Origin: an uncultured Caldithrix sp.
GTDB lineage: Bacteria; Calditrichota; Calditrichia; RBG-13-44-9
Assembly: GCA_964461135.1 (NCBI GenBank)
Contig: CAYWTB010000004.1
Span: forward strand, 53,385 to 117,384
Reading direction: 5' to 3'
Length of the DNA: 64,000 nt
Part shown: positions 19,687-51,000 of the stretch, in pieces
How positions within the stretch are numbered: the first letter of the stretch is position 1
Layout of the letters: each line of letters begins with the position of its first letter
Position numbers and translations under genes: made by a program
Notes under the pieces: model-generated
What the model was told of the DNA's origin: nothing
Database searches by the model: none
The model's input: the letters and a program-made list of their open reading frames with translations, nothing else

Positions 19687-20895
19687 TTACATATCCAGTT
19701 GCAGTCCCAGCGAAACAAACTGGCTGTCATAATTATACCAGTAGCTGTTGGAGCTGTTATTCATCCATTGATAATTCATCTGCAGAGCCAGGCTGGTGGA
19801 TGCCGTCAGTGGCAGATCCAAACGCTTTTCCAAGGTAATCCGGAACGTTCTGAGCGTATCTTTACGAAGAACCGTTTCATCAAAGTTTTCCGCATCCACA
19901 TAAATACCCTGCATCACATAGTTCTTCCGGTGATAATACCCGGCCAGCCTGGCGGACATTCTGAAAGGAAGCAGTTGAGTCAGTTCCACTCCAAATATTT
20001 GCGCTTCATAACCCATCATATCATCAAAAATCTGTGACTCAGTGGCATACCCGGGAAGCAGGCCGGCAATATTACGGTCATAGTTTAACAGATTAATGCG
20101 CTGATGATATTGAAATGCAAGGCCGCTGTATTTCATAAGCGACTGCGCCATACGCAGTGACAACACAATCTGCGCAGACGATGGTGTTTCTCCGGAAGAC
20201 GAATAGATGTAATATCCACTTCCGGGGCCATGATCATTGCCCGGACCACCTCCACCCTGTTCCACGCTGCTCACGGACTGCAGAATTCCCATAGATGAAT
20301 CTGCGGGAAGCGCAGGCGAAACCTCGGGTTCCAGGTAATATTTATAATTAAACGTGACTGCCCCGATAATGGTTGATCGCATCGGAAAGGATCGGTGTAA
20401 TGAGGTATAAGCACTTAAAAGAATATTGTTCAGATTTGTTAACTGCAGGAAGCGGTTCATTGACCCATTGGCTCCTAATCGCCAGGTGAAATTGTCTACC
20501 TGTTCGTTATGGTTAAAACCGGCACGCAAAGTTATGTAATCATAAAGATTATATTCCGGACGATCGATTCTGTTTTCCGCAGAAATACTCCAGCTGGTTT
20601 TCTCTCCACCTCCCAGATGAAACTGGTGCCAGTATAGATTCCGGCCGGGATTCTGGTAGTAGTTCATGAAACTTCCGTAGTACTGCATGGATACTTTCTC
20701 CCAGTCTTTCTGGAACCCCATGGCAATTCGTGTAATCTGATCCTCCTGGGATTCAGGATATCCGAATGGATTGGAATTATATTCCTGTTCCAGGTAGAGT
20801 GAATAATACCACTGGCCGTATGCAGAACAGACGGTTAAAATTAAAGTAAAAATGATGAGAGCGGGTATGAAGATGATGTTTTTACTTCCGTCCAT
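19687..20895 (-). CDS. Putative outer-membrane beta-barrel protein (porin-like).
   Basis: Signal peptide MDGSKNIIFIPALIIFTLILTVCSAYGQ. The body shows alternating aromatic/hydrophilic beta-strand patterns rich in Y/N/S/G, and the C-terminus is ...YNYDSQFVSLGLQLDM. No recognizable enzyme motifs. Confidence 0.45.
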   Translation of the reverse strand: MDGSKNIIFIPALIIFTLILTVCSAYGQWYYSLYLEQEYNSNPFGYPESQEDQITRIAMGFQKDWEKVSMQYYGSFMNYYQNPGRNLYWHQFHLGGGEKTSWSISAENRIDRPEYNLYDYITLRAGFNHNEQVDNFTWRLGANGSMNRFLQLTNLNNILLSAYTSLHRSFPMRSTIIGAVTFNYKYYLEPEVSPALPADSSMGILQSVSSVEQGGGGPGNDHGPGSGYYIYSSSGETPSSAQIVLSLRMAQSLMKYSGLAFQYHQRINLLNYDRNIAGLLPGYATESQIFDDMMGYEAQIFGVELTQLLPFRMSARLAGYYHRKNYVMQGIYVDAENFDETVLRKDTLRTFRITLEKRLDLPLTASTSLALQMNYQWMNNSSNSYWYNYDSQFVSLGLQLDM

Positions 20896-22117: not shown

Positions 22118-23482
22118 CTACTTTAATCCCAGTTTTTCCAGCCGTGAGCGGAGGTGTCTCTCCGTTATTCCCAACAGGCGCGCCGCTGCACTTTGATTTC
22201 CCCGTGTCTGTTCCAGGGCTGAACCAATCATCTCCTTTTCAAAGGCCCGCACTTTGTCTTCATAACCATCCCCATAATTATAGGGATCCAGTACCTTTTT
22301 TTCGGTTGGCGGCTGAGTATGGCCCGGCAGGTCCGTCATGGAAATGATATTGGTGCGACTAAGAACCACTGCCCGTTCCAGAATATTTTCCAGTTCCCGG
22401 ACATTTCCGGGAAAATCATATTTCATCAGACGGTCCAGGGCCTCACCCGATATGCCCTTCATTTCCTTCTGATTTTCGCTGCTGTATTTGTTTATAAAAT
22501 GTTCGGCCAGAACCGGAATATCCGTTTTTCGCTGGCGAAGAGGCGGCACAAAAATAGTGACCACATTCAGACGGTAATACAGATCATCCCTGAATTCACC
22601 CAGGTGCATCTTATCTTCCAGCTGGCGATGGGTGGCGGCAATAATGCGGACGTCCACTTTGATAGGGGCCGAGCTTCCAACCCGTTCTATTTCACCAAAT
22701 TGTATGGCCCGCAACAGTTTTATTTGGATAGGAAGAGGAATATCACCTACTTCATCGATGAAAAGGGTACCGCCATTCGCCTGCTCAAAACGCCCGATCC
22801 GCTGTTGTGAAGCACCGGTGAAAGCCCCTTTTTCGTGCCCGAAAAGTTCCGATTCAATTAAATTCTCCGATAACGCCGCTATATTTACAACCACAAACGG
22901 TTTGTCCTTACGAGGACTGGAGTAATGAATAGCCCTGGCAATCAGCTCTTTTCCGGTACCGCTTTCTCCGCGGATAAGCACCGAAGCTTTACTGTTGGCC
23001 ACCCTGCCGGCAGTATTAAGGACATTCTCCATCTCCCCGCTTTGAGAAATGATAGACTCAAACTTAAATTTCGCTTCCAGTTGCTCGCGGAGTTGCTTGT
23101 TTTCTTCCATCAACAGCCGTTTTTCTTTGACCCTCTCAATCAGGTTTTCCAGTTCATTCAGATCTATTGGTTTGCTGAGATAATCATATGCGCCTGCTTT
23201 CATTAATTCCACTGCATCTTCAATACTCCCGTACGCGGTTATCACTACCACATCGATTTCAGGATTTAATTCCTTTATTTTGCGTAAAACCACCAGTCCG
23301 TTCCAACCCGGCATGCGGTAATCAGTAAGTACCAGATCTATAAAATGTTTCCGGGCTATCTTAAACCCCTCTTCACCATTAACTGCAGTATATACCTGAT
23401 AATCCCGGCGTTCCAGGTAGCTTTTCAGGGCTTTCAGCTGCGTTTCCTCGTCATCGATTAATAGCAAGGTAAAAGGTCTCAT
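22118..23482 (-). CDS. Sigma-54-dependent response regulator (NtrC/ZraR/AtoC family): REC, AAA+ sigma-54 interaction domain and Fis-type HTH.
   Basis: The receiver region is MRPFTLLLIDDEE...DLVLTDYRMPGWNG. GESGTGKELIARAIHYSS is the Walker A, and the GAFTGA motif is present as EKGAFTGA. The C-terminal HTH is QSAAARLLGITERHLRSRLEKLGL. Confidence 0.9.
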   Translation of the reverse strand: MRPFTLLLIDDEETQLKALKSYLERRDYQVYTAVNGEEGFKIARKHFIDLVLTDYRMPGWNGLVVLRKIKELNPEIDVVVITAYGSIEDAVELMKAGAYDYLSKPIDLNELENLIERVKEKRLLMEENKQLREQLEAKFKFESIISQSGEMENVLNTAGRVANSKASVLIRGESGTGKELIARAIHYSSPRKDKPFVVVNIAALSENLIESELFGHEKGAFTGASQQRIGRFEQANGGTLFIDEVGDIPLPIQIKLLRAIQFGEIERVGSSAPIKVDVRIIAATHRQLEDKMHLGEFRDDLYYRLNVVTIFVPPLRQRKTDIPVLAEHFINKYSSENQKEMKGISGEALDRLMKYDFPGNVRELENILERAVVLSRTNIISMTDLPGHTQPPTEKKVLDPYNYGDGYEDKVRAFEKEMIGSALEQTRGNQSAAARLLGITERHLRSRLEKLGLK

Positions 23483-23581: not shown

Positions 23582-25624
23582 TTAATTTCTGATTCCGTTT
23601 AAGATTTTCCCGGGTATTTGTATGGAAAATTGTGTTCCCTGTCCTTCCCTGCTTTCCAGGAAAATAGTGCCATTGTGTTGATCAACAATTTGCTGAACAA
23701 TACTTAACCCGATGCCGGTTCCGCTATCTTTGGTGGTGAAATAAATATTGAATATTTTTTTCTGTATATCTTCCGGGATTCCCGGACCATCATCAGCCAC
23801 ATTCATTTCAATGAAGTCCCTTTTTGTTTTTCTGATGTGGATATCGATGCGTCCACCGGAATTCAAGGCCTCCATGGCATTCTGAATCAGGTTTGTGAAA
23901 ACCTGTTTCATTTTGCGGCGGTCCCATTCCACCGTTTCCGACCACTCCGAATCTATGTGAAGACTGATATTCTTTGTTTCCAGTAATGGCTGATATTGTT
24001 TTTGCAATTCGTCGAAAAAATCCTGCAGCGAAAAAACCTCTGTTTGCAACGGCTCAGGCCGGGCAAATCTCAGGAAATTTTCTATGGTTTGGTTAATCCG
24101 TTTCACTTCATTATAGACCATGCGGGAAAGTTGATGATATTCGTCCTGTTGCCGGCGAGGTTCAAAATCCCTGTCCAGTTGCTGGATGACGGTTCCGATG
24201 GCATTGAGGGGGTTACGTATCTCATGAGCCACACCGGATGCCAGCTGGCCCAGTGCTGTTAACCGTTCCCGTCTCTGAATCTGCCCTTCCAGCCGTTTCT
24301 GATCGGTCAGATCCCGTGCCACCAGAATATATACCAGCTGATTATTCTCATCCGTATAATGACTCTTTGACATTAAAATATGCCTGGTTTTTCCTTTAAT
24401 TGTCATCGGAAACTCCTGCATGCTGAAGCGATCATCCAGGATATGTAGCCAGTTCATGCCAGGGAAAACGCTCCTGATTTCCTTTCCCACCACTTCATCA
24501 GCTTTTAGTTCGAATAATTTTTCGGCGGATTGATTGACGATTCTGATTTTCTCTCCCGATTCGAAGACAATAATCGCATCACTCACGTTTTGGATAATAT
24601 TGCGGGAATAGGTTTCCACAGACTGGTACTGTTTCCGGGTAAAATCGAGATTTTGCCTCATCATTATGAAAGTGAACATGAAAAAACCGATTACCAGCAG
24701 CAGAAGGCTGATGATTGTGATGCGGCGATATATACGGCTGTTGATCACAGTAAGAGGTGCCATTGAAATACCCAGCCTGAATATGCCGACCGGCTCTCCC
24801 TGATAGTTGAAAGAATGAACGGCTTCAAAAACTTCCTGCCCTTTAAAATCAAGGGTACGAACACGTAAAACGGAGTCAGATAAAGCTTTACTGAGAAACG
24901 GTGAAGTATTAATCCGTTCCAGGTCCACTATATTTCCGGAGGCGGCGAGAATGCCGGAGGTATCCTGAATGGCTGCATACAGGATTCCGGGATTCCCGCT
25001 AAGGCTTTGAAGAAGGCTGCCAATCCCCACCTCCTTGCGAAATTCCAGCAGCTGCGCCGCATTCAGGTTAACGACTATGGCACTTTGGGCTTTTCCGGCC
25101 ACCGCCACTGCATAGCGGAAGCCCTTTTCATAGCGTGCCGCCTTTAATCCCAGCAACAAAGTATCCGTCTTTCCGGTGAATATGGGTGTTAAAATGTCTT
25201 CCGGTTCATTCCCGGATTCGGAATAATTGTGTATCTGCTGATGACTGCTGTATATCTTTTTTCCATCGGGTGTAAAAATATTTATCCTGTACAGATTATT
25301 TTCGCGGGCAAACTTCTGCAGGAAGGCATTACTGACCCGACCTTTGTTATAGAGATCTTTTACCATATTGGCATTATTTAAAAGTCTTTCATCAATAAGC
25401 TCTTCAATCAACATATTTGTCATCAGCGTATTGCGGGAGGCACTGATGACTGTTTCCGATAAAGTATGTGCCTGTTCAGTCATGAGTTCAACCAGCTCTT
25501 TCTTGCTCTGGCGTAATTCTATAATAGCCGAACTGATCATCAGGGCTGCCAGTACCAGGAATATGAATAACAAATTTTTAGGACGTATGAACTGTGCCTG
25601 TCTGAAGATTCTTTTCATGATCAT
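23582..25624 (-). CDS. Membrane sensor histidine kinase: two TM helices flanking a ~270-aa periplasmic domain, then PAS, HisKA and HATPase_c.
   Basis: TM1 is LLFIFLVLAALMISSAII and TM2 is ITIISLLLLVIGFFMFTFIMM. The H-box is GVAHEIRNPLNAI, and the ATPase region contains DDGPGIPEDI...GTGIGLSIV. Confidence 0.85.
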   Translation of the reverse strand: MIMKRIFRQAQFIRPKNLLFIFLVLAALMISSAIIELRQSKKELVELMTEQAHTLSETVISASRNTLMTNMLIEELIDERLLNNANMVKDLYNKGRVSNAFLQKFARENNLYRINIFTPDGKKIYSSHQQIHNYSESGNEPEDILTPIFTGKTDTLLLGLKAARYEKGFRYAVAVAGKAQSAIVVNLNAAQLLEFRKEVGIGSLLQSLSGNPGILYAAIQDTSGILAASGNIVDLERINTSPFLSKALSDSVLRVRTLDFKGQEVFEAVHSFNYQGEPVGIFRLGISMAPLTVINSRIYRRITIISLLLLVIGFFMFTFIMMRQNLDFTRKQYQSVETYSRNIIQNVSDAIIVFESGEKIRIVNQSAEKLFELKADEVVGKEIRSVFPGMNWLHILDDRFSMQEFPMTIKGKTRHILMSKSHYTDENNQLVYILVARDLTDQKRLEGQIQRRERLTALGQLASGVAHEIRNPLNAIGTVIQQLDRDFEPRRQQDEYHQLSRMVYNEVKRINQTIENFLRFARPEPLQTEVFSLQDFFDELQKQYQPLLETKNISLHIDSEWSETVEWDRRKMKQVFTNLIQNAMEALNSGGRIDIHIRKTKRDFIEMNVADDGPGIPEDIQKKIFNIYFTTKDSGTGIGLSIVQQIVDQHNGTIFLESREGQGTQFSIQIPGKILNGIRN

Positions 25625-29947: not shown

Positions 29948-31096
29948 TCAATCCCGAGATTGATAAACCGCTGATACAAATGGACCCTGCAGGTAATCCT
30001 GCGGATCAATCTGGCTTTGCAGGATGCAACCGAAATACCCGCCCATCAGCAGCATCCGGGCACATTCACACAACCCCGCCGCGGTAGTAGCCTGGATGGC
30101 ACGCAATACCTTACCGGCAATGTGAAATGGGTGTATCATATAATAGCTTTCCAGGATTCTCAATCTCCCCCGCTGATCTTTTCCACTGACCGAGGCATAA
30201 ATAACCACCACATCGTGTTCCACCGCCGGAATTGATTCTTCCATGCGCTGCTGAAGTTTCTGTACCCGGTCCTCACCATGGGGAATATGGCGCAGGATGC
30301 CTTCAATCCAGTCATAATGTCCCGGATAACGAAGTGTCTTGTAATCCAGTTCCCGGGTTTTCCCTGCCAGTGCTTCTGTAAGGTCGGCCGCACCGCCGGA
30401 GGTAAGATCCTCTTCATATTCTATTCCATAGAGAATAATTCTGGAACGCTCGGTAAGAGAGGCTTTTATGGTGGTTTCATAATTCCGTATAATTCTGGCC
30501 GGTTTGACATACAGCGTGGCTACTCCCACCGGGCTCCAGGTAAATCCATAAAAATACGGGGGATAGGCATTCTGGGTCAGTGCGCCAACCTTCATATGAA
30601 TGGTATTCACTTTTTCCACTTTATAATCCTTGCAGAACTGGTGATAAAGGCCGTTGGCCAGGACATTAATGAAACCCGGAGCCAGACCTGCCTGCAGGAT
30701 ATAGCCCATTTTGGCATCCCGGGCAATCTCAATCACCTCATTGGTCTCTTTTACATATTCGGTAAGATTTACGTAATGCAAACGGTGTTTTTTGGCCAGC
30801 CGTGCTATCCGTGGCGCCTGGTTTCCGGGAAGACAATCCAGGATGATATCCGCCTGATCCAGCAGGTGGTCAAACCCGGCATCGCTGCCTTCTTTCGGCA
30901 TTACAAAATATTCCACTTCTCCCTGGCGGAACGAGCTGGTGAGAATCCATCCTGCAGCTTCCTTAGCCGCCGCTTCATAACGGTCTCCCAGATAGATATG
31001 GCTGCTGAATTCACCCAGCTCCCGCAGTAACAAACCGGCCGCCCGCCCGATTCCACCGGCACCGGCAATAATAATCTTATACGTTTCTCTACCCAC
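29948..31096 (-). CDS. Saccharopine dehydrogenase-like NAD(P)-binding oxidoreductase.
   Basis: The N-terminal Rossmann motif is IIIAGAGGIGRAAGLLL. At 382 aa the length matches the saccharopine DH family. Confidence 0.75.
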   Translation of the reverse strand: MGRETYKIIIAGAGGIGRAAGLLLRELGEFSSHIYLGDRYEAAAKEAAGWILTSSFRQGEVEYFVMPKEGSDAGFDHLLDQADIILDCLPGNQAPRIARLAKKHRLHYVNLTEYVKETNEVIEIARDAKMGYILQAGLAPGFINVLANGLYHQFCKDYKVEKVNTIHMKVGALTQNAYPPYFYGFTWSPVGVATLYVKPARIIRNYETTIKASLTERSRIILYGIEYEEDLTSGGAADLTEALAGKTRELDYKTLRYPGHYDWIEGILRHIPHGEDRVQKLQQRMEESIPAVEHDVVVIYASVSGKDQRGRLRILESYYMIHPFHIAGKVLRAIQATTAAGLCECARMLLMGGYFGCILQSQIDPQDYLQGPFVSAVYQSRD

Positions 31097-31189: not shown

Positions 31190-32794
31190 TTATTTTTCCA
31201 GAGGCTGCCATTCTCCGAAGGTTTCGATATTAACCTGGATCTGCGGATCAGTTTCATATTTTTCGAAGGTATTATAATACCAGCCCATATATTCCGAATC
31301 ACCTCCATTCTGGGTGGTGATCAGGGGGCGATTGGAGAGATGCCCGATGTTGTCTAAACGATCACGGGGTTCCAGTTTGTCACCGCCCTGTGGATCGATT
31401 GGTATCCAGCCATAGTTGGGAAGATAAACTTCCGGCCAGCGATGAAAAACCTCATCCAGGCTGGCATCATCACCCCGCACCATTACCGCACCCACATATC
31501 GCGCCGGCAGACCGGCTGCCCGGCACAGAGATATGAAACTGAACGTGTATTCTGAACAGGAACCGGTGCCTCTTTTCAGAACAAAGGGAGCCACATTCCA
31601 GCCACCTTCCAGCTTATATTCCAGGGTATTGCGTACATAATCAAATATTTTACGGGCAATCCAGTAGGGATTTTTTTCTGCGCTCACTTCCTTCTGGACA
31701 ATATCCCGGATATAGGGGTCATTAATCTCATACTTACTGCCATCCGCGGTATATCTCCCGCGGATATTGGACGGAATATCCGAGAGGATTCCGCATTGAT
31801 CAGGGAAAATAAAGTAACGGATTTCCGAAATCTCCGCCTCCACGGTCATTACCAAAGTGCTCTTGCTTTCGGAGATCAGGTTCTTATAATTAAAATGGGC
31901 AAACTTCTGCTTCCAGTGGTCTTCAACCGTTTGGTAATCCGTGGGATTAAATTTCACGGAAAGTATTTTCTGCTGATTTAAATTTTCCGGTACGGCAAAA
32001 TACACATCCAGGTTCTGAAGCTTTCCGGTGCCGGTTGTTTTTACCTCATGGATCAAGGTTATCAGAGCCTTACGGGTATTGTCCAGATGGAACAGGTCCT
32101 GATCTTTGCGTACCAGCTGATACATGGCATCTGTCTGGTAATCCACATTCCAGAGAGTGGTTCCATCCCAGGTTATTCCCCGCGGATAGGGGGCAGGAGA
32201 GTCACACATGATGATAACTTCCCCATTGGCCGGATCAATCATATACAATTCATTGGCCAGGCGATCGGAGCTCCACAGGTAGCGGCCGTCGAAGGTGAGA
32301 CCCTGAACGGTGCGGGCCGGAGCTGTGAAAGTCTTCAGGGCGGTTCCATCACTCAGATCAATTTTCATGATACTGTTCTCTTTGGAATCGCTTACCCATA
32401 GCGTCTTGCCGTCCCAGGCCAGGCCTTCAGGATTATCACTCGGAGCATCTATTGCCGCCAGAATGGATCCATTTCGGGGATCAATTTTAAAGATCTTTTT
32501 CTGCCTGGAATCCACATTCCACAAGTGTGACCCGTCCCAGGCCAGTCCCATCGGCCAGAAACCGGGTGAAGGAATGGAATGTTGAACTTTTCCGGTTTCC
32601 GGATCGATACTATAAATTTTATCCTCTTTATGATCCGCCACCCAGAGATATTTTCCGTCGAAGGTCATTCCGGTAGAATGTAAAGCCGGTGCCGGAAATT
32701 CTTTAATAATTTTTCCCGGATAGCCGTACATCACAGAAACGGTTAGTAATAAAAGCAAACATATCAAAAGGTTAATTCTGGACATAATAATCAC
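31190..32794 (-). CDS. Secreted two-domain protein: an N-terminal beta-propeller of ~47-aa repeats (glutaminyl-cyclase-like blades) fused to a C-terminal transglutaminase-like cysteine protease core.
   Basis: Signal peptide MIIMSRINLLICLLLLLTVSVMYG. Five repeats of the type GLAWDG.HLW..D.....I.KID...G are present. The C-terminal GTGSCSEYTFSFISLCRAAGLPARYV carries the catalytic Cys, with His and Asp-like positions downstream. Confidence 0.7.
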   Translation of the reverse strand: MIIMSRINLLICLLLLLTVSVMYGYPGKIIKEFPAPALHSTGMTFDGKYLWVADHKEDKIYSIDPETGKVQHSIPSPGFWPMGLAWDGSHLWNVDSRQKKIFKIDPRNGSILAAIDAPSDNPEGLAWDGKTLWVSDSKENSIMKIDLSDGTALKTFTAPARTVQGLTFDGRYLWSSDRLANELYMIDPANGEVIIMCDSPAPYPRGITWDGTTLWNVDYQTDAMYQLVRKDQDLFHLDNTRKALITLIHEVKTTGTGKLQNLDVYFAVPENLNQQKILSVKFNPTDYQTVEDHWKQKFAHFNYKNLISESKSTLVMTVEAEISEIRYFIFPDQCGILSDIPSNIRGRYTADGSKYEINDPYIRDIVQKEVSAEKNPYWIARKIFDYVRNTLEYKLEGGWNVAPFVLKRGTGSCSEYTFSFISLCRAAGLPARYVGAVMVRGDDASLDEVFHRWPEVYLPNYGWIPIDPQGGDKLEPRDRLDNIGHLSNRPLITTQNGGDSEYMGWYYNTFEKYETDPQIQVNIETFGEWQPLEK

Positions 32795-33153: not shown

Positions 33154-33256
33154 GTGTAATTCGTGGACAAAAAAAACAGTTGGCAGTCTGCAGTCTTTAG
33201 TTGGCAAAAAAACAAGATTCCCGAAAAATACGTTTTCCTCCGGAAAACAAATCGGG
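33154..33256. repeat. Conserved ~100-bp non-coding core element, copy A. About 98% identical, as its reverse complement, to 55748..55848.
   Basis: The two copies were aligned by eye and differ by about 4 substitutions or indels over ~100 bp. The element contains the internal hairpin cccgaTTTGTTTTCCGGAGGAAAACGtatttttcggg and direct repeats of agttggca. A flanking hairpin ctaaatca-gcca-tgatttag lies at 33258..33277. Confidence 0.6.
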
Positions 33257-33338
33257 ACTAAATCAGCCATGATTTAGCCCCTACCCAGCAGCTAGCACCC
33301 AGCATCATTATTCCCGACGACTCTGGCTCTGTTGGAAT

Positions 33339-34079
33339 TCATTTCCTGGAATCGGCCTCATCCATCAGCCTGCAGGCTTCCAGAAGCACATTCATGGTGG
33401 ATCCCTGGATATTCCGTTCTACCTTTTTGTCCACCGTCGGTTCAAATTTAAAAATTCCTTCCTTAAATGCGACCATTTTGTTGACGGCATCCTTACCCAG
33501 GATATTATCCGCAACCCGGGCGTAAATCATATCACCCTTGTCAAAGACAATCTCCCCTTTGTCGTCGGCCGTCACTTCCATTCTTCCGCTGCGCTTATTC
33601 AGATTAAGCAGCTGTACCATCTCCACCAGTGACAGATCGGCCAGATTTCCTTCGAAACCTTTCATCTGTGAAACTTGTTCATTTTCCACTGTTTTAACAC
33701 GTTTAGCCCTGCCCAACAGGGTTCCAACCTTTTCCAGTAGAATTTTACGATCTACAGGTTTTACCAGGTATTCATCAGCACCCGCCCTGAAACCCCGGAT
33801 TTCCATATCCTGGTCACTAAGACTGGTGAGAAAAATGAAGGGCACCATGGGTATTTCCGAATTTTCCCGCACCATCCAGCAGAATTCGATACCATCAGTC
33901 TGGGGCATCATCACATCGGAAATAACCAGATCCGGCTTAACTGAATTTACCTTCTCAATCCCTTCATCTCCGTTTTCAGCCGTATAAACCTCATAACCGG
34001 CCTTCTGAATACTGATGCTCAACAGCTTCAGGACATGCGGATTATCATCAACAATCAGTATTTTTTCTTTTTGTGCCAT
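33339..34079 (-). CDS. Orphan response regulator: REC domain plus a C-terminal DUF4388-like domain.
   Basis: Receiver motifs are ILIVDDNPHV...DLVISDVMMPQTDG...K. The C-terminal GNLADLSLVEMVQLLNLNKRSGRMEV...G.I.F..G is DUF4388-like; this assignment is from memory. Confidence 0.7.
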   Translation of the reverse strand: MAQKEKILIVDDNPHVLKLLSISIQKAGYEVYTAENGDEGIEKVNSVKPDLVISDVMMPQTDGIEFCWMVRENSEIPMVPFIFLTSLSDQDMEIRGFRAGADEYLVKPVDRKILLEKVGTLLGRAKRVKTVENEQVSQMKGFEGNLADLSLVEMVQLLNLNKRSGRMEVTADDKGEIVFDKGDMIYARVADNILGKDAVNKMVAFKEGIFKFEPTVDKKVERNIQGSTMNVLLEACRLMDEADSRK

Positions 34080-34143: not shown

Positions 34144-35175
34144 TCAGGAGACATTCTTCAATTTTGAAAAACGAATGGTTTTATTTCGTCCGCTGGCTTT
34201 AGCCTGCTGTAAGGCCTTATTGGTATATTCCAGAAAGTGTTCTGTCTTCTTACTCTCGGCAAGATCAATTTCCAACAGACCAATACTCACTGTCAGTTTC
34301 TGATAATCATGCTTTCGTTTGGGAGAAAGTTTCTTGAGTTCATAAAAATTCTGATCAAAAAACTTAGTCTGGGCCACGGCGGAACGAATTCTTTCCGCTT
34401 CATAAAATGCACCCGCTTCATTGGTGATGGGCAACACGACAGCAAAACGGTTGGCCTCAAATCTGAAAACAACATCTGTTGTGCGTGTATTGTTTAGTAT
34501 GACATTGGCAACACGCATCAGAATATAATCGCCGGTTTTTTCCCCGAACACCTCATTGACATTATGAAAAAGATCCACATCAATAAGAACCAGGGACAAC
34601 TGATGTTTATATCGTTTAGCCCTGGCCAGTTCTTCCTTGAGCCGTTTATGAAGAAAGGTTCTATTATACAGGCCGGTCAGGGGGTCGGTGATCTGGGTTC
34701 CCTCCAGCTCCACCGTTTTCTTCTGCAGCTGTTCGATTTCTTTCAGTGCATCCGATTTCTCAGCTATCAGACTTTTATTATGCTGTCTCAGATTATTCAC
34801 GAGTTCCTTTTTGTGCAGGATGGACTTAACTCTGGCGACCAGTTCCTTGGCATTGAAAGGTTTTAAAATATAATCATCCGCCCCCAGTTCAATACCCATA
34901 ATGCGGTGCTCATCCTCCACATAATTGGCTGAAAGAAAAACCACCGGGATATCCTTAGTCTGAGGATTTTCCTTCAGAATTTTACAGGCCTCAAAGCCAT
35001 TCATCACAGGCATCAATGCATCCAGAATAATGATGTCCGGTTGCTCTTTTTCCGCCACGCTGACACCTTCCTTACCATTTACAGCTCTGAAGACAGTAAA
35101 CTCATAAAAGCGCAGCAGATGATCCAGAGTATCAAGCATGTCTTCATTATCGTCAACAATCAACACTTTGGACAT
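34144..35175 (-). CDS. Response regulator with a degenerate GGDEF domain: the I-site RxxD is retained and the A-site GGEEF is replaced by EANRF. Likely a c-di-GMP receptor rather than a cyclase.
   Basis: The REC domain is VLIVDDNEDM...DIIILDALMPVMNG. The GGDEF fold contains DPLTGLYNR, but the active-site stretch is RTTDVVFRFEANRFAVVLP, compared with RESDLVARYGGEEFAVLLP in PleD. Confidence 0.8.
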   Translation of the reverse strand: MSKVLIVDDNEDMLDTLDHLLRFYEFTVFRAVNGKEGVSVAEKEQPDIIILDALMPVMNGFEACKILKENPQTKDIPVVFLSANYVEDEHRIMGIELGADDYILKPFNAKELVARVKSILHKKELVNNLRQHNKSLIAEKSDALKEIEQLQKKTVELEGTQITDPLTGLYNRTFLHKRLKEELARAKRYKHQLSLVLIDVDLFHNVNEVFGEKTGDYILMRVANVILNNTRTTDVVFRFEANRFAVVLPITNEAGAFYEAERIRSAVAQTKFFDQNFYELKKLSPKRKHDYQKLTVSIGLLEIDLAESKKTEHFLEYTNKALQQAKASGRNKTIRFSKLKNVS

Positions 35176-35326: not shown

Positions 35327-35701
35327 TTAAATCAGTTCTTCATATCCGGATTTATCCAGCAGTTGGTTTACCTCATTCTTATCTGACAATTTTATTTTAA
35401 TCATCCACCCCTCACCGTAGGGATCCTTATTAATGATTTCAGGTTCATCGGAGAGTTTGGAATTAATATCGGTAACTTCGCCGCTGAAGGGAGCAAAAAG
35501 GTCGGAGACGGCTTTCACTGCTTCTATGGTTCCGAAGCTTTCGGATTGTTTGGTTTTAAGTCCTTTTTCCGGCAATTCCACATAGACAATGTCACCCAGT
35601 TCGCTTTGAGCATAGTCGGTAATTCCAATAGTGGCCACATCGCCCTCAATCCGTGCCCATTCATGGTCTTTAGTATACTTGAGATCTTCCGGAATTTGCA
35701 T
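35327..35701 (-). CDS. gcvH: Glycine cleavage system H protein.
   Basis: 124 aa. The lipoyl-lysine motif is EAVKAVSDLFAPFSGEV. The N-terminal YTKDHEWAR is typical of GcvH. Confidence 0.9.
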   Translation of the reverse strand: MQIPEDLKYTKDHEWARIEGDVATIGITDYAQSELGDIVYVELPEKGLKTKQSESFGTIEAVKAVSDLFAPFSGEVTDINSKLSDEPEIINKDPYGEGWMIKIKLSDKNEVNQLLDKSGYEELI

Positions 35702-35714
35702 TTTTGCCCTCCAA

Positions 35715-37073
35715 TCAGGTTTCGATTAATTCTTTTCTGTATATTTTCTCGATGAAATTAGTATCAAAATTACCAGATTTAAATTCCTCTGTTTCAATAA
35801 CATATTTATGAAATGGAATGGTGGTTTTTATACCTTCCACTACGAATTCATCAAGCGCCCGCCGCATCCGGTTGATGGCTTCTTCCCGGTCTTTTCCCCA
35901 GACGATCAATTTGGCAATAAGTGAATCGTAAAAGGGAGGAATTTTATAAGATCCGTAGATGTGTGTATCCACTCGTGTTCCGGGTCCTCCCGGCTGATAC
36001 ACCGAGGTAACCTCACCCGGAGAAGGAATAAAATTATTGGCTGGGTCTTCCGCGTTGATCCGGCACTCAATGGAATGACCCAGTGGTTTTAGCTGGTTTT
36101 GTTTCAATTCCAGAGTGCGACCTGTAGCAACCATAATCTGTTCTTTTATCAGATCCACATGGTATACCATCTCAGTAACGGGATGTTCAACCTGAATCCG
36201 CGTATTCATCTCCATGAAATAGAAATTTAAATCCACATCTACCAGAAATTCAATAGTACCGGCGCTGTAATATCCCACATGGAGTGCTCCCTTTACGGCC
36301 GATTCCCCCATAGCTTTTCTGATTTTTTCTGTAACGATGGGAGACGGGCATTCTTCAATGAGTTTCTGGTGCCTTCTCTGAATTGAACATTCCCGCTCAC
36401 CCAGGTACACCATATTCCCCTGCTGATCACCCAGAAGCTGTATCTCGATGTGCCGGGGACCTTCGATATATTTTTCCAGGTAGAGATCGGGATTACCAAA
36501 GGCTGCTTCCGCCTCGGCGCGGGCCATCATAAAGCTGTTTTCCAGATTTTTAGCTTCCTTGACAATTCGCATGCCCTTACCACCGCCGCCGGCCACAGCT
36601 TTCAGCATTACTGGATATCCCACCTCATCAGCCAGCTGAACGGCTTCGCTTTCTTTTTTTATCACGCCTTCACTGCCGGGAACAACCGGTACTCCCGCTT
36701 CAGTCATGTATTTTTTTGCTTCGGCTTTATCACCCATACGGCGAATATTTTCCGGAGAAGGTCCAATGAAGGATATCTCACAGGAATTGCACATTTCGGC
36801 AAACTCGGAATTTTCCGCCAGGAATCCGTATCCCGGGTGGACAGCATCAGCACCGGTGATTTCTGCAGCAGAAATTATACGAGTAGCATTCAGGTAACTC
36901 TGTGAACTGGAAGCCGGGCCTATACACACCGCTTCATCAGCAAATACTGTATGAAGGGCATTTTCATCCTGGGTTGAATAAACCGCCACGGTCTGGATTC
37001 CCAGTTCCTTGCAGGCCCGGATTATCCGGATTGCGATCTCACCCCGGTTTGCAATCAGAATTTTTTTAAACAA
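35715..37073 (-). CDS. accC: Acetyl-CoA carboxylase biotin carboxylase subunit.
   Basis: 452 aa. Begins [21 protein letters not shown]. The ATP-grasp region contains [10 protein letters not shown], and [14 protein letters not shown] is also present. Confidence 0.95.
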
Positions 37074-37085
37074 GAACGTTTTTCC

Positions 37086-37568
37086 TCAATCTTTTTCAAT
37101 CAAAAATAAGACCTGATCATATTCCACGGGTTGCGCATTTTCCACCAATATTTTTTTCACTGTTCCACCAAGTTCAGACTGAATTTCATTCATTAATTTC
37201 ATCGCTTCAATAATACATAGTGTTTGACCCACTTTTACGTGATCTCCCACCTCTACATAGGGATCGGCATCAGGTGCCGGAGCTCGGTAAAACGTTCCCA
37301 CCATTGGAGAGGATACTTTATCAAGATTTTCGGCGGCTTCTTCCCCAGCAGGTACCGGAGAACCCGGAACGACACCTTCATTGACGGGGAGCGTTTCCAT
37401 GGTAACCTGGGGGGGATTCGAAGCTTCACTGTAAGTGACAACTGAAGGCTGTTTCATACTGCTGTTCTTGGAAATACGGATTCGGCTTCCTTCCTCCACA
37501 ATTTCAATTTCACCAATATCACTCTGTTCCACAACCTTGATAAGTTGCTTTATTTCACTAAATTTCAT
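37086..37568 (-). CDS. accB: Biotin carboxyl carrier protein.
   Basis: The C-terminal biotinyl domain with EAMKLMNEI carries the biotinyl-Lys. A Pro/Ala-rich linker precedes it. Confidence 0.9.
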
Positions 37569-37632: not shown

Positions 37633-38232
37633 TTATTTTCCAGTCTGCCGGTAGAGATCCTGTTCCTCAATATAAGCCGACACATCATCAGGAACCAGAT
37701 ATTTAATTGAACGCCCTTCCCTTACCCGCCGGCGAATGATGGTGGAGGAAATCTCAAGCAGGGGGACATTGACAAAACGGATATGAGGGATGAATTCCTT
37801 AACGGAATCTGCAGGTTTGAAGCCGGGGCGCCCGAATGCTACTAACTGACAAATTTTAAGAATTTCCAGAGGTTCTTTCCAGCGCGGTAATTCATTGACA
37901 TTATCCATCCCGATAAAATAATAAAACCAGGGTGAAATATTCCGGTAGGTCTGTTCCAGAAGATGCAGGGTATCGACGGTATAGGAAACACCTTCACGGG
38001 AAAGTTCGATTTTACAGGTTTTGAAATAAGGATTATCCGCTACCGCCAGTTCCAGCATCTTCAGGCGTTCCCCGGCTTTTGATATCCCCACATTGTCTTT
38101 CAGGGGGTGAATTCCAACCGGAATAAACCAGATTTCATCCAGCTTCAGATCATCACGCAGAAATTCGGAAATGATCAGGTGTCCATTGTGAATGGGATCG
38201 AAAGTTCCTCCAAGAAGGCCGATTTTTTTCAT
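37633..38232 (-). CDS. nadD: Nicotinate-nucleotide adenylyltransferase.
   Basis: MKKIGLLGGTFDPIHNGHL is the (H/T)xGH nucleotidyltransferase motif. The ORF track extends the frame upstream to 38376, overlapping the BamD-like gene; the internal Met at 38232 is the more plausible start. Confidence 0.8.
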   Translation of the reverse strand: MKKIGLLGGTFDPIHNGHLIISEFLRDDLKLDEIWFIPVGIHPLKDNVGISKAGERLKMLELAVADNPYFKTCKIELSREGVSYTVDTLHLLEQTYRNISPWFYYFIGMDNVNELPRWKEPLEILKICQLVAFGRPGFKPADSVKEFIPHIRFVNVPLLEISSTIIRRRVREGRSIKYLVPDDVSAYIEEQDLYRQTGK

Positions 38233-38260
38233 GGCGTCACTTTTATAAGAGGTACTGCCG

Positions 38261-39031
38261 CTAATTATTGGCAAGTCTTCTCTGAATCTCACTAATTCTT
38301 GAGGTGGCTTCACGCGTAAAATTGCTCTTGGGATACTTCTCCACAAATACGGTGAAGGTAGTAAGCGCCTCATCATACAATTTTAGTTTGTACTGACAAT
38401 CCGCCTTCCAGTATAAAGCTTTTTCGGCGGCAGACGTGTCATAATATTTTTCCAGAAGGATGTTATAATAGATGATTGCCGAATCATAAATTCCCATCTT
38501 CCGGTAGACATTACCACCCAGCAGCTGCTTTCTGGCCAACTTTGAACGTAATCCAAACAGTTGTTTTTCAGCACGCTCCCGGTAACTGCTTTCCGGATAA
38601 GCTTCAATGAAATTCTGAAATTGTCGCAATGCTTTCAGCGTATATTCCTGATCCAGTTCCGGTCTCTGGGACAGATTATAAAAGCTCATACCCACTTTAT
38701 AAAAAGCCTCCTGAACATAGGGGCTTTCAGGATAATCGTTTATCAGTTTCTGATATTCCGCCACGGCAATAAGATATTCCTCATTCATATAATGGGATTC
38801 AGCCAGATAAAACTGGGCATCATCCACCACCGGGTTACCGCTGAATTTCAAGGTTATGACTGTGAATTCGGTGATGGCGTCCAGATATTTACCTTTATCA
38901 AATTGCTTCTTTGCATATTCAAAATATCTCTGGGCATCGAAAGTATCTTTGTGCACTTTTTTCCCGCAGGATGAAAGACTGATGACAATAAAAACGATTA
39001 TCAGCGGGAAATAAATCACCTTTTTTAGCAT
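38261..39031 (-). CDS. bamD: Outer-membrane lipoprotein with TPR repeats, BamD/ComL-like.
   Basis: Lipoprotein signal with lipobox (…ISLSSCGKK). TPR-like helices are present, for example YEYAKKQFDKGKYLDAI. Confidence 0.7.
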   Translation of the reverse strand: MLKKVIYFPLIIVFIVISLSSCGKKVHKDTFDAQRYFEYAKKQFDKGKYLDAITEFTVITLKFSGNPVVDDAQFYLAESHYMNEEYLIAVAEYQKLINDYPESPYVQEAFYKVGMSFYNLSQRPELDQEYTLKALRQFQNFIEAYPESSYRERAEKQLFGLRSKLARKQLLGGNVYRKMGIYDSAIIYYNILLEKYYDTSAAEKALYWKADCQYKLKLYDEALTTFTVFVEKYPKSNFTREATSRISEIQRRLANN

Positions 39032-39663
39032 TATGAACCACTCCTTAATGAAAAAAATAAGTATACAACCCCAATAGTAGCAACAGTTACCAATGCGGGT
39101 TCAATAAATTTCTGAGAAAAACGAGAGCCTGTTTTTTCTCCCTGGCTAAACTCATAAAAATCATTTTCAACTTTGTTCGTTTCAGATCTGTTTAAAGTAT
39201 CCGAATGACTTATAGTTCTACTGTAAGAATAACTAATAGATTCATGCGGATTAATTACATAAAATGTGAAAAGTGTATTGATATTACGCTGGTAGTGACC
39301 GTACCGGAATAACAGGTCCCGGTCAAGCCCTCGATAAGTGATTTTCGCATCAATTTTATCGATGATCAGCCTGTAGTGAGTCTTTGAAGTACTGTCTGTG
39401 AATTCTGTTTTCAGGCTGACATTTAGGTTCAGTAATTCCCCCCGCAATTTTCCTTCCAGCCATTGGCTGACATCATTATTATCTTCAGAAATTAAATAAA
39501 ACGGCCCTGTTCCGGAATACAGTGAATCGACCGCAGAAATGACAGGCTTTACCAACAGATCCGTAAGTATCTCCAGATTAGTTTCCGTTTGAGCGTTAGC
39601 TGTTTGAAAAATAGCCCAAAGACTAAAAAATATTCCGAAAATTATGTTTTTATTGAACTTCAT
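39031..39663 (-). CDS. Hypothetical secreted or membrane-anchored protein.
   Basis: An internal Met gives the signal peptide MKFNKNIIFGIFFSLWAIFQTANAQ. There is a C-terminal hydrophobic anchor. No recognizable motif. Confidence 0.4.
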   Translation of the reverse strand: MKFNKNIIFGIFFSLWAIFQTANAQTETNLEILTDLLVKPVISAVDSLYSGTGPFYLISEDNNDVSQWLEGKLRGELLNLNVSLKTEFTDSTSKTHYRLIIDKIDAKITYRGLDRDLLFRYGHYQRNINTLFTFYVINPHESISYSYSRTISHSDTLNRSETNKVENDFYEFSQGEKTGSRFSQKFIEPALVTVATIGVVYLFFSLRSGS

Positions 39664-39688
39664 ATACTTTAATATTTTATATAGACAG

Positions 39689-41251
39689 TTAAAATCGAAA
39701 AAAAATCTTCCCAAGTAAAATGAAAAAAATAAATAATCCCGATAGAATAAGCATTAATTTACCAAACCATTCACCACTTTGGCTGTAATATGTGGCTTCG
39801 AGTTTCAGCGGTACCTGTGCGAGAAGATCCTTGCGGGTATTCAGGCCTGCTTTTTTTAAGACCCTGCCAGTCGGGTCAATGAAACAGGAAATACCGGTAT
39901 TGGCACATCTGATGATACTTACCCGGTTTTCGATGGCACGATACACCGCATAGCGGGCATGCTGGTAAGGGCCGCTGGTGGTTCCAAACCAGCCATCGTT
40001 AGTAATTATAGTCAGGAGATTTGCTCCATTGCTAATAAAATTCCTGATCATGTGGGGGAATACGGATTCATAACAAATGGCTGCAGAAAGGGCGGTCATG
40101 ACGCTGTCTGACGATTCGAACTCATTTTCCTGGTACAGTTTGTCACGGAAATTACCCCGGCGAACAGCAATTTTAAAGTCAAAAACAGCATATTTATGTC
40201 CCGGAAAAAAATCTCCGCCGCCGACATCCCAATCGCGCAAAAAAGGAAAATATTTTTTAAAAGGCATGGTTTCCGAACCGGGGACCAACGCTATTTTATA
40301 ATAGCTCTGATATGAGGGATCTCCTGGCCGGAAAAAGAAGGCGGCATTATAGGTATACACATCACTTTTATCCGGAGAATACTGGTAGTCCGGCGTTCCG
40401 GTTAATAAATACACATCATTGGAATCCGTAAAAGCGGCAATCCGGTTAATTTCATTAATATGTGTTCTTAAATAAAATGGTGTGGCTGTTTCAGGCCATA
40501 CTACCAGTTCAGGTTTTTCATTCATCATTTGGCGTGAAGCATCCATGAGCATGTTAAAGGCGTTCTGCTGGAACTCGGGATCCCATTTTTCATAAGGATC
40601 AACATTGGGTTGAACAAGTCCTGCTTTGATAAGGTAATGATCTGTAATATCAATCTGATGCATACGATATTTGCCATAGAGAAAGGCACACAGTATTAAA
40701 ATCAGTGAACCCAGCGGAACAAGCCAGCGTTCCCGGTGTGCATAACGGAATACCACATATATGGATACCGCCATTACAACCAATATAAAAGACACCCCCA
40801 GATAACCGGTCCACTCGATAAATTGAACAAAGGGGAGATAATAGGTCTGGGTATAGGCCAGTGTTAACCAGTTAAAACGAATATCGGTAAATAACCGCAG
40901 AAATTCCAAGCCTGTCCATAAAAAGGGCAGACTGAACAGGGCCAGAACTTCCGATCTGCGGCGGAATATTGTATATAACCACCACAGAAAGGCATAATGC
41001 AGGGAATTAATGGTAATAGCCAGCAAGGCACCCACCAGCGTACTGGAAGCAATCCAGAACAGCGTCATGGCGCCCCAAATCAGACCCAGCCAATACCCAA
41101 GGCGAAAGGCATCCCGGCCCGATTTATCTTTCAAAAACCATAGGAACAGAGCCAGAGCAAGCGGTGCCAGGAAACCCAGCGGGAATGGCGGAAAACTCAA
41201 GGTCAGTAATATTGAGCTCAAAAAAACATATTTTAAGTCACGGCTATCCAT
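39689..41251 (-). CDS. lnt: Apolipoprotein N-acyltransferase.
   Basis: 520 aa. An N-terminal multi-TM region is followed by a CN-hydrolase domain with E...K...C residues (...ICYESVFP). Confidence 0.9.
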   Translation of the reverse strand: MDSRDLKYVFLSSILLTLSFPPFPLGFLAPLALALFLWFLKDKSGRDAFRLGYWLGLIWGAMTLFWIASSTLVGALLAITINSLHYAFLWWLYTIFRRRSEVLALFSLPFLWTGLEFLRLFTDIRFNWLTLAYTQTYYLPFVQFIEWTGYLGVSFILVVMAVSIYVVFRYAHRERWLVPLGSLILILCAFLYGKYRMHQIDITDHYLIKAGLVQPNVDPYEKWDPEFQQNAFNMLMDASRQMMNEKPELVVWPETATPFYLRTHINEINRIAAFTDSNDVYLLTGTPDYQYSPDKSDVYTYNAAFFFRPGDPSYQSYYKIALVPGSETMPFKKYFPFLRDWDVGGGDFFPGHKYAVFDFKIAVRRGNFRDKLYQENEFESSDSVMTALSAAICYESVFPHMIRNFISNGANLLTIITNDGWFGTTSGPYQHARYAVYRAIENRVSIIRCANTGISCFIDPTGRVLKKAGLNTRKDLLAQVPLKLEATYYSQSGEWFGKLMLILSGLFIFFILLGKIFFRF

Positions 41252-48085: not shown

Positions 48086-51000
48086 CTATTTTAAGACTTT
48101 ATCAATTGAGGGTTCGATTGGTAACGTGAAATAAAAAACACTTCCCTTTTTCTTCTCGCTCTCCACCCAGATGTCTCCACCATGCAAATTGATTATTTCT
48201 TTACAGATTGCAAGTCCCAGACCGGTTCCGGAAGATTTGGGAGTCATTTCCGAATCCACCTGTTCGTATTTTTCAAAAACTGTCTGCAACTTATCAGGAT
48301 CAATGCCCGGTCCACTGTCCCGCACCCCGATGCGGGCAAAAAGTTTGTTTTCTCCCTTGATTTCCTGGGAATATATATCACTGGAAATAATAATACCGGT
48401 CTCTTCCGGTGTGTGCTTTATGGCATTACTCAGCAGGTTGTTCATGACCTGTTCGATGCGCAGGCCGTCAAAATATAATAGCGGCAGGTTGGAATTCAAT
48501 TTGGTCTCCATTGAGATCTTTTTGTTCTTGAGCAGAACGCGATGATTTTCCACAATTCTCTCTATAATGGAATTTATTTCTCCAACCTTCGGTTCAATTC
48601 CGAATTTTCCCACTTCCAGTTTGGATGCCACCAAAAAATTATCCACCAGGTTCAGAACTTTTTTGACATTTTCTTTGGCAATATCAAGGAGTTCTTCCTG
48701 TTCAACATTTATATCCCCCACCACCCGGGTTCTGATTAATTCAATGAATCCCTGAATTACATTCAAGGGAGAACGGAGATCATGAACAATCATGGAATTG
48801 AAATCGGCCTTCAATCTTTCCAGTTTTTTAATGACGCGCAGATCATTCAGAACCAGAAAATATCCCTGACTTCCTTTCTGCTGCCGAAAAGGAAATATAT
48901 AAGTGGAAACCGGAATGACTTCTCCGCCGGAGGAAATCAGCTCAAGCTCGACATTTTCTATATTTTTCTTCTTTTGTTCCTGGACGTCTGTTACCTGCCG
49001 GGATATTTCCACCAGTTTGGTTTTGCTTTCATCAGAAAAATGCTGAATAAGGGGTTTATTGAGCAGGTTTTTCCTGCTGAATCCCACCAGCTTTTCAAAA
49101 GCGGGATTCACATAAAGGATCTGATGTCCGGTTGAAGCGGTTACCAGAGCAAGAGTCATGGTTTCCGCCAGCGTCCGGTACCGCTCTTCCGAAATCTGAA
49201 GACTCTCATACAAAGATGAATTTTCAATGGCCACAGCAGCCTGGTTGGCAAAATATTCCAACGAAATAACCTTGTCTTCATTGGGCTTCATTCTGTCCAC
49301 CGGATCTCTCACCACCAGAAAACCATGGGTGTTCTGGCGGGATTCAATGGGGATCAGCAAGAGGTCCTGGTTTTTCCATTCGGTGACCACATTATCCAGA
49401 AATCCATTCTCGCTTTGCCCGATATCCAGAGGATTAGTGTCATAAAAATAGGAATGACTTATTTTGCGGCAATCCAGCAGAAATTTTTCAACAGTTTTCT
49501 GTTCGGCAGATTCCTTCAAATTGATGGGGATATCTTCCGTCTTGTCGAATCCCAATCTGCTGATGGTTTTGTATCTCTTCTGATACTCATTTATCCGCAG
49601 GACGGCCACATCATTCCAGCCCAGGGTCTTCCGGATGCTCCGGGTAATTCTTTCCAGAATTGCCTGAAGGCTCAGTTCCAGTTTAAGTTCATTCCCCAGT
49701 TCGAAAATACGCGCAAGTTGGCGAAGCTTAAGATTCGCTTCCTTTACAATGTAGGTATCTTCCAAAACCTTTCTGATCCTGTCCACCAGAAGAGAAATCT
49801 GGTTGACTTCCCAGGAGGTAAACGGGGACTTACCAATACCCCGGTTAACGATAAAAACACCGATTTCTTCTCTCTGCAGGCAGATGGGAGCAATAATCAG
49901 CTGCTGGTAATCCAGTTTTTTAAAGGTATCCAGGGTGGATTTATCAAACTGAGAATTTTCATAAACATTATCAATTATAACCACCTTGTTATTGGTGATC
50001 GTCTGATTAAATTTAGAGTTGCGGGACAAGTAAAGAACTGTTTTTTCCAGGGATTTCCAGGATGCTTTCTCTTCCGTCCCATAGCTGAACTTGGGAAACA
50101 GGAATCCAAATCCTCTATTAATCTGCCAGAAAATAGTATTATCGGCTTTGGAAATTGTATTTATTTTTTTGCAGGAAAGCTGCAGAATGGAATCTTCCGA
50201 AAACCGGTTGTAGACCAGTTGTTCCGTGAAATCATCACGCGGTTCCACACTTTTCCCCATCAGCATGAGATTGTACAGTTTCAACCCTATTAAATCATTG
50301 ATTTCCCTTAGAAAATTGGTTCCGCTTTTACTTTTGCGCAGCAGGTTAACCTGTCCCAGAATCATTCCACCCAGAGGCAGGTTCTGATTGATAATGGGGA
50401 AAAAGTAAATCTGTTTAACTCCCCATCCCCATTCGGACAGTTTCCGGAAGAGGGTCGGATCTTCAGTAGTAGATACCTGAAACATCCGTTGCTGTTTCAT
50501 CCAGACGGCGGCCAGTTTTTCCAGGTTAGGGGTTAGAATTGCACTGGTTCTATGATGAGGAGGGATAAATTGACTAAAATACTTGATCTGAGTCAATTCG
50601 GGATCAAAAGAAAACAGGGAGATATAATCATACGGTAATATTTTGGGCAGAAAGTTGATCAGTCTCTCAAAAAGTGTACTTACCCGGTTTTCTTTATTGA
50701 TGATTTTGGTACATTTTAATAAATTTTCAGAATATTCACGGCTGCTGAACTGTTCCAGATCCGTTTTTTCTCTGCGCAGAACAGCTTTAATATTATGGGC
50801 AATAATCTCAGCCGGCGTATTATTCTGCAGCACAATGGATTTGTTTAGATCTCCCAGGCTCTGCAAACGGCTAAGGGGAATTTGATCCGAAAGAATGAAG
50901 ATAATACCGGTATCCTGCAGGATAGGTGATTTAAACAGCACCAGCACCTTCTCATTCATCAGGAGTTCGGAATGAATATGGGCAATTAAGAGATGAGGAC

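Follow-up and report, generated by a model that had tools for sequence, protein, structure and literature searches.

A response regulator with a degenerate GGDEF domain, encoded with a REC-PATAN partner in a Calditrichota accBC-gcvH operon, is a candidate c-di-GMP receptor

The window, that is, the whole 64-kb stretch of DNA that was analyzed, carries on its minus strand the genes nadD, accB, accC, and gcvH, followed by two response regulator genes that we designated RR1 and RR2. Pfam matches and synteny identified accB (37086-37568), accC (35715-37073), and gcvH (35327-35701), which together occupy 35327..37568 (minus strand). RR1 (34144..35175, minus strand) lies 151 bp beyond gcvH. It has an ATG start and encodes a 343-aa protein with a receiver (REC), a helical stalk, and a degenerate GGDEF domain. 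RR2 (33339..34079, minus strand) follows 64 bp downstream on the same strand and encodes a 246-aa REC plus PATAN (DUF4388) protein, in agreement with a preliminary description of this DNA that had placed a REC-DUF4388 protein next to RR1 (DUF4388/PATAN, 70.8 bits in Pfam). The RR2 receiver has the phospho-acceptor set D11, D12, D55, T85, Y104, and K107. In RR2 the receiver is N terminal and the PATAN domain (PF14332) C terminal, whereas the canonical PatA-type order is PATAN and then REC. A terminator-like hairpin with a 12-pair stem and a T tract (33254..33281, minus strand) is positioned 57 nt past the RR2 stop codon, and thus the transcription unit likely ends there. There was no terminator-like site on the minus strand between gcvH and RR1. 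A sigma70 promoter scan returned 8 sites versus 6.7 expected from shuffled sequence, which is not above chance. No riboswitch for glycine or other RNA element reached an Rfam gathering score in the 151-bp gcvH-RR1 spacer or in the rest of the window; the sole Rfam match in the window was a chance-level miRNA (E 0.57).

The receiver of RR1 comprises residues 4 to 117 (34825..35166, minus strand; Pfam Response_reg, 93 bits) and has a complete phospho-acceptor set of D8, D9, D52, S82, Y102, and K105. Across 95 homologues, D9, D52, Y102, and K105 never vary, and conservation of D8 and S82 is at least 90%. D52, the predicted phosphorylation site, is encoded at 35020..35022 (minus strand). The GGDEF fold, residues 163 to 332 (34180..34689, minus strand), was recognized by both PF00990 (117.8 bits against a cutoff of 23.8, covering profile positions 3 to 161 of 161) and TIGR00254 (122.7 bits against a cutoff of 37.4). 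Pfam annotation of the GGDEF domain had been proposed as a check in the preliminary description. An AlphaFold2 model with a mean pLDDT of 85.5 has one receiver, a long helix, and the GGDEF fold. The linker between the two domains is a helix of approximately 40 residues, with residues 146 to 160 modeled at low confidence; DSSP on the model assigned residues 109 to 151 (34723..34851, minus strand) to a stalk helix of the WspR/DgcR type.

RR1 had been described as PleD-like, a label that does not suit its architecture. The full-length fold was matched best by WspR (Foldseek, 3bre_B, E 2e-28), with further matches to WspR 3i5a and to DgcR 6zxb/6zxm, and RR1 has the WspR/DgcR layout of a single receiver, an unbroken helical stalk, and a GGDEF domain. 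The NCBIfam PleD equivalog NF007135 scored 240.6 bits, short of its cutoff of 474, and the DgcR equivalog (153.5 against 500) and the CbrR model (96.6 against 600) also fell below their cutoffs.

PleD was nevertheless the best sequence match to RR1 in the PDB (E 7e-52), with the I-site, the A-site, and R390 in register. The RR1 motif region (window:34444-34485:-) translates as RTTDVVFRFEANRF, and ntRTTDvvfRFEANRFavvlp of RR1 aligned without gaps with nvRAIDlpcRYGGEEFvvimp of PleD (RAIDLPCRYGGEEF; HMMER against the PDB). The exact register previously reported was therefore correct in its columns, but the PleD residues quoted with it (RESD-LVARY) were wrong, because PleD reads RAID-LPCRY. In this alignment the RxxD I-site of RR1, R231-T-T-D234 (34474..34485, minus strand), corresponds to R359 and D362 of PleD, and E240-A-N-R-F244 (34444..34458, minus strand) replaces G368-G-E-E-F372, with the canonical spacing of 5 residues between the I-site and the A-site. 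R262 (34390..34392, minus strand), in an AERIR context shared by both proteins, corresponds to R390, which completes the primary I-site of PleD as its third residue.

Active diguanylate cyclases carry the signature GG(D/E)EF in a beta-hairpin, with AGDEF and SGDEF tolerated. A pattern search of the whole RR1 protein found neither a GG dipeptide nor [GAS]G[DE][DE][FLM], and so there is no functional motif elsewhere in the domain that a different alignment might have revealed. The degenerate EANRF motif claimed for the A-site is thus confirmed. Among the metal-site residues, D327 of PleD is kept as D199, whereas E370 is replaced by N242 and E371 by R243. Because both glycines are lost, the Mg-binding glutamate is an asparagine, and the second glutamate is an arginine, the A-site is predicted to be incompatible with catalysis. 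It could be argued that RR1 is instead a weak or conditional cyclase making c-di-GMP or another cyclic dinucleotide, as it retains substrate-contact residues, including the guanine and phosphate contacts N207, D216, K326, and R330 (PleD N335, D344, K442, and R446), and as named relatives are labeled "diguanylate cyclase", along with "GGDEF domain-containing protein", "response regulator", and "hypothetical protein". Trace formation of c-di-GMP was reported for CbrR with the A-site SAEKI (PMC8779298), and one member of the RR1 family, P0077, keeps GGEEF. We consider cyclase activity highly improbable, however, with both glycines and both acidic residues gone, the metal glutamate changed to an amide and its neighbor to a cation, and no alternative GG(D/E)EF motif in the protein. 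Milder changes, like those that give GGGVF in SgmT (D to G and E to V), inactivate WspR, according to work cited in PMC3509222.

The degeneration of the A-site is a trait of the family and not of this protein alone. The family was examined as the top 120 matches of a protein search, which were full length and 47 to 100% identical to RR1; its named members were from Calditrichota/Calditrichia metagenome-assembled genomes, plus one labeled KSB1. The A-site consensus in these 120 homologues is x-x-N-[RK]-F. The position of PleD E370 is N in 96, that of E371 is R or K in 103, and that of F372 is F in 116, whereas the positions of G368 (E, G, D, K, and others) and G369 (G, K, S, N, and others) are variable.

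The I-site is conserved. An arginine occupies the position of PleD R359 in 114 of the 120 homologues and an aspartate that of D362 in 112, so that the earlier claim of an intact RxxD motif holds for RR1 and for most of its relatives; at the position of R390, 105 have an arginine and 10 a lysine. When the 170 positions of the GGDEF domain were ranked by conservation (entropy) in 73 sequences remaining after filtering to <80% identity, R231 ranked 25 and D234 ranked 23, while the two intervening positions of RxxD ranked 162 and 97 and the two former glycine positions ranked 133 and 146. Conservation of the arginine and aspartate next to freely varying intervening and former glycine positions suggests that the RxxD pocket is still selected and that the catalytic hairpin is not. 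The primary I-site of R231, D234, and R262 is intact and apparently under purifying selection.

The residues that contact GTP in PleD have also been kept in most of the 120 homologues: D327 in 115, D329 in 120, N335 in 100, D344 in 95 (with E in a further 22), R366 in 116, K442 in 108, and R446 in 91. The equivalents of these seven in RR1 are D199/D201, N207, D216, R238, K326, and R330. They ranked 4 to 56 of 170, all within the top third and 5 of the 7 within the top quarter. Because most of these residues are conserved like the I-site, GTP or another guanine nucleotide may be an alternative or additional ligand. One possibility is that RR1 is a guanine-nucleotide sensor in which the remnant of the substrate pocket binds GTP or, for example, (p)ppGpp, with Asn and Arg/Lys in place of the two glutamates permitting binding without turnover. 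Such a protein would report nucleotide or energy status, instead of or besides c-di-GMP. The conserved N-[R/K] pair is a nonrandom substitution that would fit this role. [quoted passage not shown] However, the family shows no constraint on the GG turn, which gives the hairpin of the active site its shape, the phosphate-loop lysine K332 has given way to H, R, Q, or N, and a guanine sensor leaves unexplained the conservation of RxxD and R262 after the loss of catalysis and of product inhibition. We regard this alternative as unlikely.

Not all family members have the RxxD motif. RxxD is lost in approximately 10 of the 120 top homologues (for example, P0104 with ALTS, P0109 with SLSS, P0117 with PAAN, and P0085 with DVAD) and is absent in 3 of 8 full-length representatives at 33 to 46% identity to RR1. 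These members keep the degenerate motif and the insertion described below, and synteny and the partner gene are kept where checked (P0104). Retention of the gene, its position, and its partner implies that the family cannot depend on I-site binding for its function. It is therefore conceivable that RR1 is an adaptor that needs no nucleotide, in which the GGDEF fold does no more than provide a scaffold or dimerization module and output is set solely by phosphorylation of the receiver and contact between the insertion and a partner. The receiver is the best-conserved region of the protein, the insertion is apparently older than the loss of the A-site, and the GGDEF domain of TmoK in Myxococcus xanthus neither makes nor binds c-di-GMP (PMC4877007). 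Yet in RR1 and approximately 90% of its relatives the residues of both nucleotide pockets belong to the best-conserved positions, and free variation at the two inner positions of RxxD is hard to reconcile with maintenance of the fold alone. These observations make a purely structural role quite unlikely.

The insertion, residues 270 to 295 (34291..34368, minus strand; TKFFDQNFYELKKLSPKRKHDYQKLT), is family specific and contains a basic K-R-K patch. It is approximately 11 residues longer than the matching hairpin of PleD and was modeled by AlphaFold2 as two short helices with a pLDDT of approximately 70. All 120 top homologues have it, including the GGEEF-bearing P0077, whereas generic REC-GGDEF cyclases lack an insertion of this type. 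In a neighbor-joining, midpoint-rooted tree P0077 falls in the basal clade, where the other A-sites are at various stages of decay (KEEKY, EDEKF, NGERF, DVENF, DGAYF, and EGANF). The crown clade, to which the protein in the window belongs, has FR-x-x-x-N-[R/K]-F. The presence of a GGEEF member and a graded decay at one genomic position indicates that the family descends from a real cyclase. The insertion was gained first and catalysis was lost later, and the I-site was kept after that loss.

Searching 1.84 billion representative proteins with a profile was informative only on the compactness of the family. Approximately 10 clusters at 50% identity make up the single-stretch, ~340-aa RR1 family. 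All 8 full-length representatives that carry the insertion, at 33 to 46% identity, have a degenerate A-site, and adjacent profile matches without the insertion carry GGEEF. Past the ~10 clusters, the top matches were multireceiver proteins that scored by repeated receiver domains.

The genomic setting of RR1 is conserved as well. In another 15 independent loci, taken from relatives with identities as low as 41%, accC-gcvH is upstream of RR1 without exception, and RR2 is downstream on the same strand in all 13 of those that extend far enough. The conserved one-strand order is accB/accC-gcvH-[gcvPA]-RR1-[gcvPB]-RR2. In six loci (L001, L082, L087, L088, L089, and L091) the RR1 gene is flanked by gcvPA and gcvPB, which encode the two subunits of glycine dehydrogenase, and RR2 comes after gcvPB. 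Gaps in this form are 3 to 25 bp in most loci, and in L082 gcvPB and RR2 overlap by 1 base. The other ten loci, including the window, have the form without gcvP, with the gcvP genes located elsewhere; gcvPA and gcvPB are absent from the 64-kb window. The interleaved form is probably ancestral because it is found in both the basal and the crown clades and in P0038 (67% identical to RR1), while P0007 (77% identical) shares the form of the window. It appears that gcvP left the cluster more than once. A scan of genome contigs returned 80 loci, of which 6 were true RR1 orthologues and the others generic receiver matches. None of the 74 nonorthologous loci had the acc/gcv-RR cluster, and none had acc/gcv neighbors.

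RR2 is more conserved than RR1, with 56 to 100% identity among its own top 120 matches, and 42 contigs, judged by equal size, are common to the top-120 lists of the two proteins. With the synteny so well conserved, a functional link between RR1 and RR2 is strongly supported. By analogy with characterized PATAN proteins, a type IV pilus motor or a polarity module is a possible target of RR2.

The operon invites a broader proposal, that the response regulator pair is a phylum-wide device linking glycine cleavage and acetyl-CoA carboxylation to c-di-GMP and phosphorylation signaling. The metabolism concerned is that of C1 units, lipoyl, and biotin. Placement of the RR1 gene between the P-protein subunit genes, with short gaps, would fit RR1 associating with glycine decarboxylase or regulating it. 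Alternatively, RR1 could signal metabolic flux to a machine for motility or polarity that is under PATAN control. In either version the N-[R/K]-F pocket and the basic insertion would be new ligand or partner surfaces. We consider a device of this kind very unlikely as a whole and offer it as speculation.

The window offered little in the way of other signaling genes. There is no second GGDEF domain in the 64 kb, and among the window open reading frames scanned with Pfam there were no EAL, HD-GYP, or PilZ genes, nor any genes for chemosensory or pilus proteins. Thus, a c-di-GMP network in the host is assumed. The only other receiver in the window besides those of RR1 and RR2 is in an NtrC-type regulator (22118-23482), which adjoins its own kinase (23582-25624). 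The RR1/RR2 cluster contains no kinase or Hpt gene, and therefore the "phospho-relay" part of an earlier suggestion that the pair forms a phospho-relay-controlled switch is only a guess; the pairing itself was borne out at 13 of 13 loci.

A histidine kinase encoded at 48086-51148 had been put forward as a candidate partner. It has the domain order GAF-PAS-HisKA-HATPase, preceded by approximately 490 N-terminal residues without a domain match, and lies 13 kb from the pair, past lnt, an oxidoreductase gene, a TPR gene, and mutS. No evidence links it to RR1 or RR2, and it has no orthologue within 6 kb on either side at 13 related loci, where tblastn gave only generic kinase-core matches of approximately 26% identity at 2 loci.

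The reading that we favor, with a probability of roughly 55%, is that RR1 is a noncatalytic GGDEF protein that serves as a c-di-GMP receptor or adaptor under phosphorylation control, built on the WspR/DgcR layout. In this model some kinase would phosphorylate D52, and phosphorylation would rearrange a stalk-mediated dimer, as it does in WspR and DgcR. Intercalated c-di-GMP would bind the pocket formed by R231, D234, and R262, as in PopA, SgmT, and CbrR. Phosphorylation and bound c-di-GMP would then be read out together through protein-protein contacts, for which the basic insertion at residues 270 to 295 is the best candidate surface, and RR2, presumably cotranscribed, would act in the same pathway.

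A literature search found nothing relevant on c-di-GMP signaling in Calditrichota or on a regulator within a gcv operon. We know of no earlier proposal of a c-di-GMP effector for Calditrichota and of next to no experimental signaling data for the phylum. If RR1 does bind c-di-GMP, it would be, to our knowledge, the first such effector proposed for the phylum, and the systematic misannotation of its family as diguanylate cyclases would be corrected. The passage from GGEEF through partial decay to a fixed N-[R/K]-F at one genomic position provides a clean system for studying the conversion of a cyclase to a receptor. The pairing of RR1 with a REC-PATAN protein in an operon of core metabolism is unusual and offers a testable link between metabolism and a second messenger.

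Among known proteins, the closest parallels are PopA of Caulobacter crescentus and SgmT of M. xanthus, which share with RR1 a dead A-site, an RxxD motif, and placement in two-component modules. PopA has two receiver domains, as does PleD, and SgmT is a hybrid kinase. Unlike RR1, neither is known to have the insertion of residues 270 to 295 or the N-[R/K]-F motif, to be encoded in an acc/gcv operon, or to have a PATAN neighbor. PopA and SgmT, with their degenerate A-sites and intact I-sites, are c-di-GMP receptors in which ligand bound at the I-site governs localization or interaction with a partner, not catalysis (PMC3509222). Binding has been demonstrated for those two proteins, whereas for RR1 it is a prediction. 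ActA of M. xanthus, also a REC-GGDEF protein, matches RR1 in the order of its domains and in the state of its motifs (PMC3509222). Its gene is the first in the act operon, ahead of actB, and its clean deletion gave no developmental phenotype (PMC4877007).

WspR (PA3702) and DgcR of Leptospira resemble RR1 in their single receiver, helical stalk, GGDEF domain, and RxxD I-site, but they are active cyclases with GGEEF, whereas RR1 has none of the GGEE residues. PleD of C. crescentus differs in its REC-REC'-GGDEF architecture and its catalytic activity, and the secondary I-site arginines of its second receiver have no counterpart in RR1. CbrR of Campylobacter jejuni is, like RR1, a response regulator with a variant A-site but has two receivers and a variant I-site. 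With the motifs KGRD and SAEKI, it binds c-di-GMP through the I-site, binds GTP as well, and regulates motility, with trace cyclase activity reported (PMC8779298).

For RR2, the comparison is with PixG and PixE of Synechocystis, which likewise combine a PF14332 PATAN domain with a receiver. [quoted passage not shown] RR2 differs in its reversed domain order and in having as its partner a dead GGDEF protein instead of a CheY protein.

Degenerate-GGDEF receptors on receiver domains are thus an established class that includes PopA, SgmT, ActA, and CbrR. What is new is the compact, apparently Calditrichota-specific family with its fixed N-[R/K]-F motif and conserved insertion; the visible series of putative decay stages leading from GGEEF within that family; the systematic misannotation of its members as "diguanylate cyclase"; and the invariant pairing of RR1 with a REC-PATAN protein inside the accBC-gcvH(-gcvP) operon. 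This operon context is the unusual part of the finding.

Downstream of the REC-PATAN regulator RR2, beyond the terminator-like hairpin, the minus strand of the window carries a gene for a protein with a beta-propeller and a transglutaminase core (31190-32794) and a gene for a saccharopine-dehydrogenase-like protein (29948-31096). Both genes are also found 3' of RR2 in two related Calditrichota loci, L082 and L090, and in a third, L091, the beta-propeller/transglutaminase-core gene also follows RR2.

Within the family-specific insertion of RR1, the response regulator with the degenerate GGDEF domain, there is a second RxxD string, R287-K-H-D290 (about residues 286-289; window 34309-34320, minus strand). 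When GGDEF-domain positions were ranked by conservation, R287 was well conserved and D290 was not. The string therefore probably belongs to the basic patch and does not form a second I-site.

The histidine kinase at 48086-51148 (minus strand; 1020 amino acids) has a GAF-PAS-HisKA-HATPase architecture in Pfam, with approximately 490 N-terminal residues preceding the GAF domain that had no Pfam match. No response regulator gene adjoins the kinase gene, which makes it an orphan kinase. Genes for a type III pantothenate kinase, a BirA-like biotin/lipoate ligase, and methylmalonyl-CoA mutase are grouped at 51204-54555 (minus strand). This group is on the same strand as the accBC-gcvH block, and thus genes for biotin, lipoyl, and CoA metabolism are concentrated in the region.

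The mechanically derived nadD ORF (37633-38376, minus strand; 247 amino acids) and the BamD/YfiO gene (38261-39031, minus strand) overlap over 116 nt. In the public gene call, nadD starts later and encodes 199 amino acids, and therefore the true start is probably internal to the longer ORF. In the L087 metagenome-assembled genome, accC is present as two ORFs of 188 and 264 amino acids (L087 2898-4245), probably because of a frameshift or an assembly error. Four sizeable ORFs in the window had no Pfam match: 7769-9136 (plus strand; 455 amino acids), 19687-20895 (minus; 402), 39031-39714 (minus; 227), and 58728-60113 (plus; 461). The 227-amino-acid ORF lies between lnt and bamD, and most related loci carry a conserved counterpart, also without a Pfam match, at the same position.

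In the genome of P0077, the RR1 orthologue that retains GGEEF, two genes are located immediately upstream of accC (L088 1-1572): one for a HAMP histidine kinase and one for a second REC-GGDEF protein, which has the motif GGDDF (HVGGDDFIV). In this locus and five other related Calditrichota loci (L082 [4658-9238], L001, L087, L089, and L091), RR1 is flanked by gcvPA and gcvPB, which encode the two subunits of glycine dehydrogenase. The gaps are 3-25 bp in most of these loci, and gcvPB is followed by RR2. It is unusual for a signalling gene to separate the genes for both subunits of a single enzyme.
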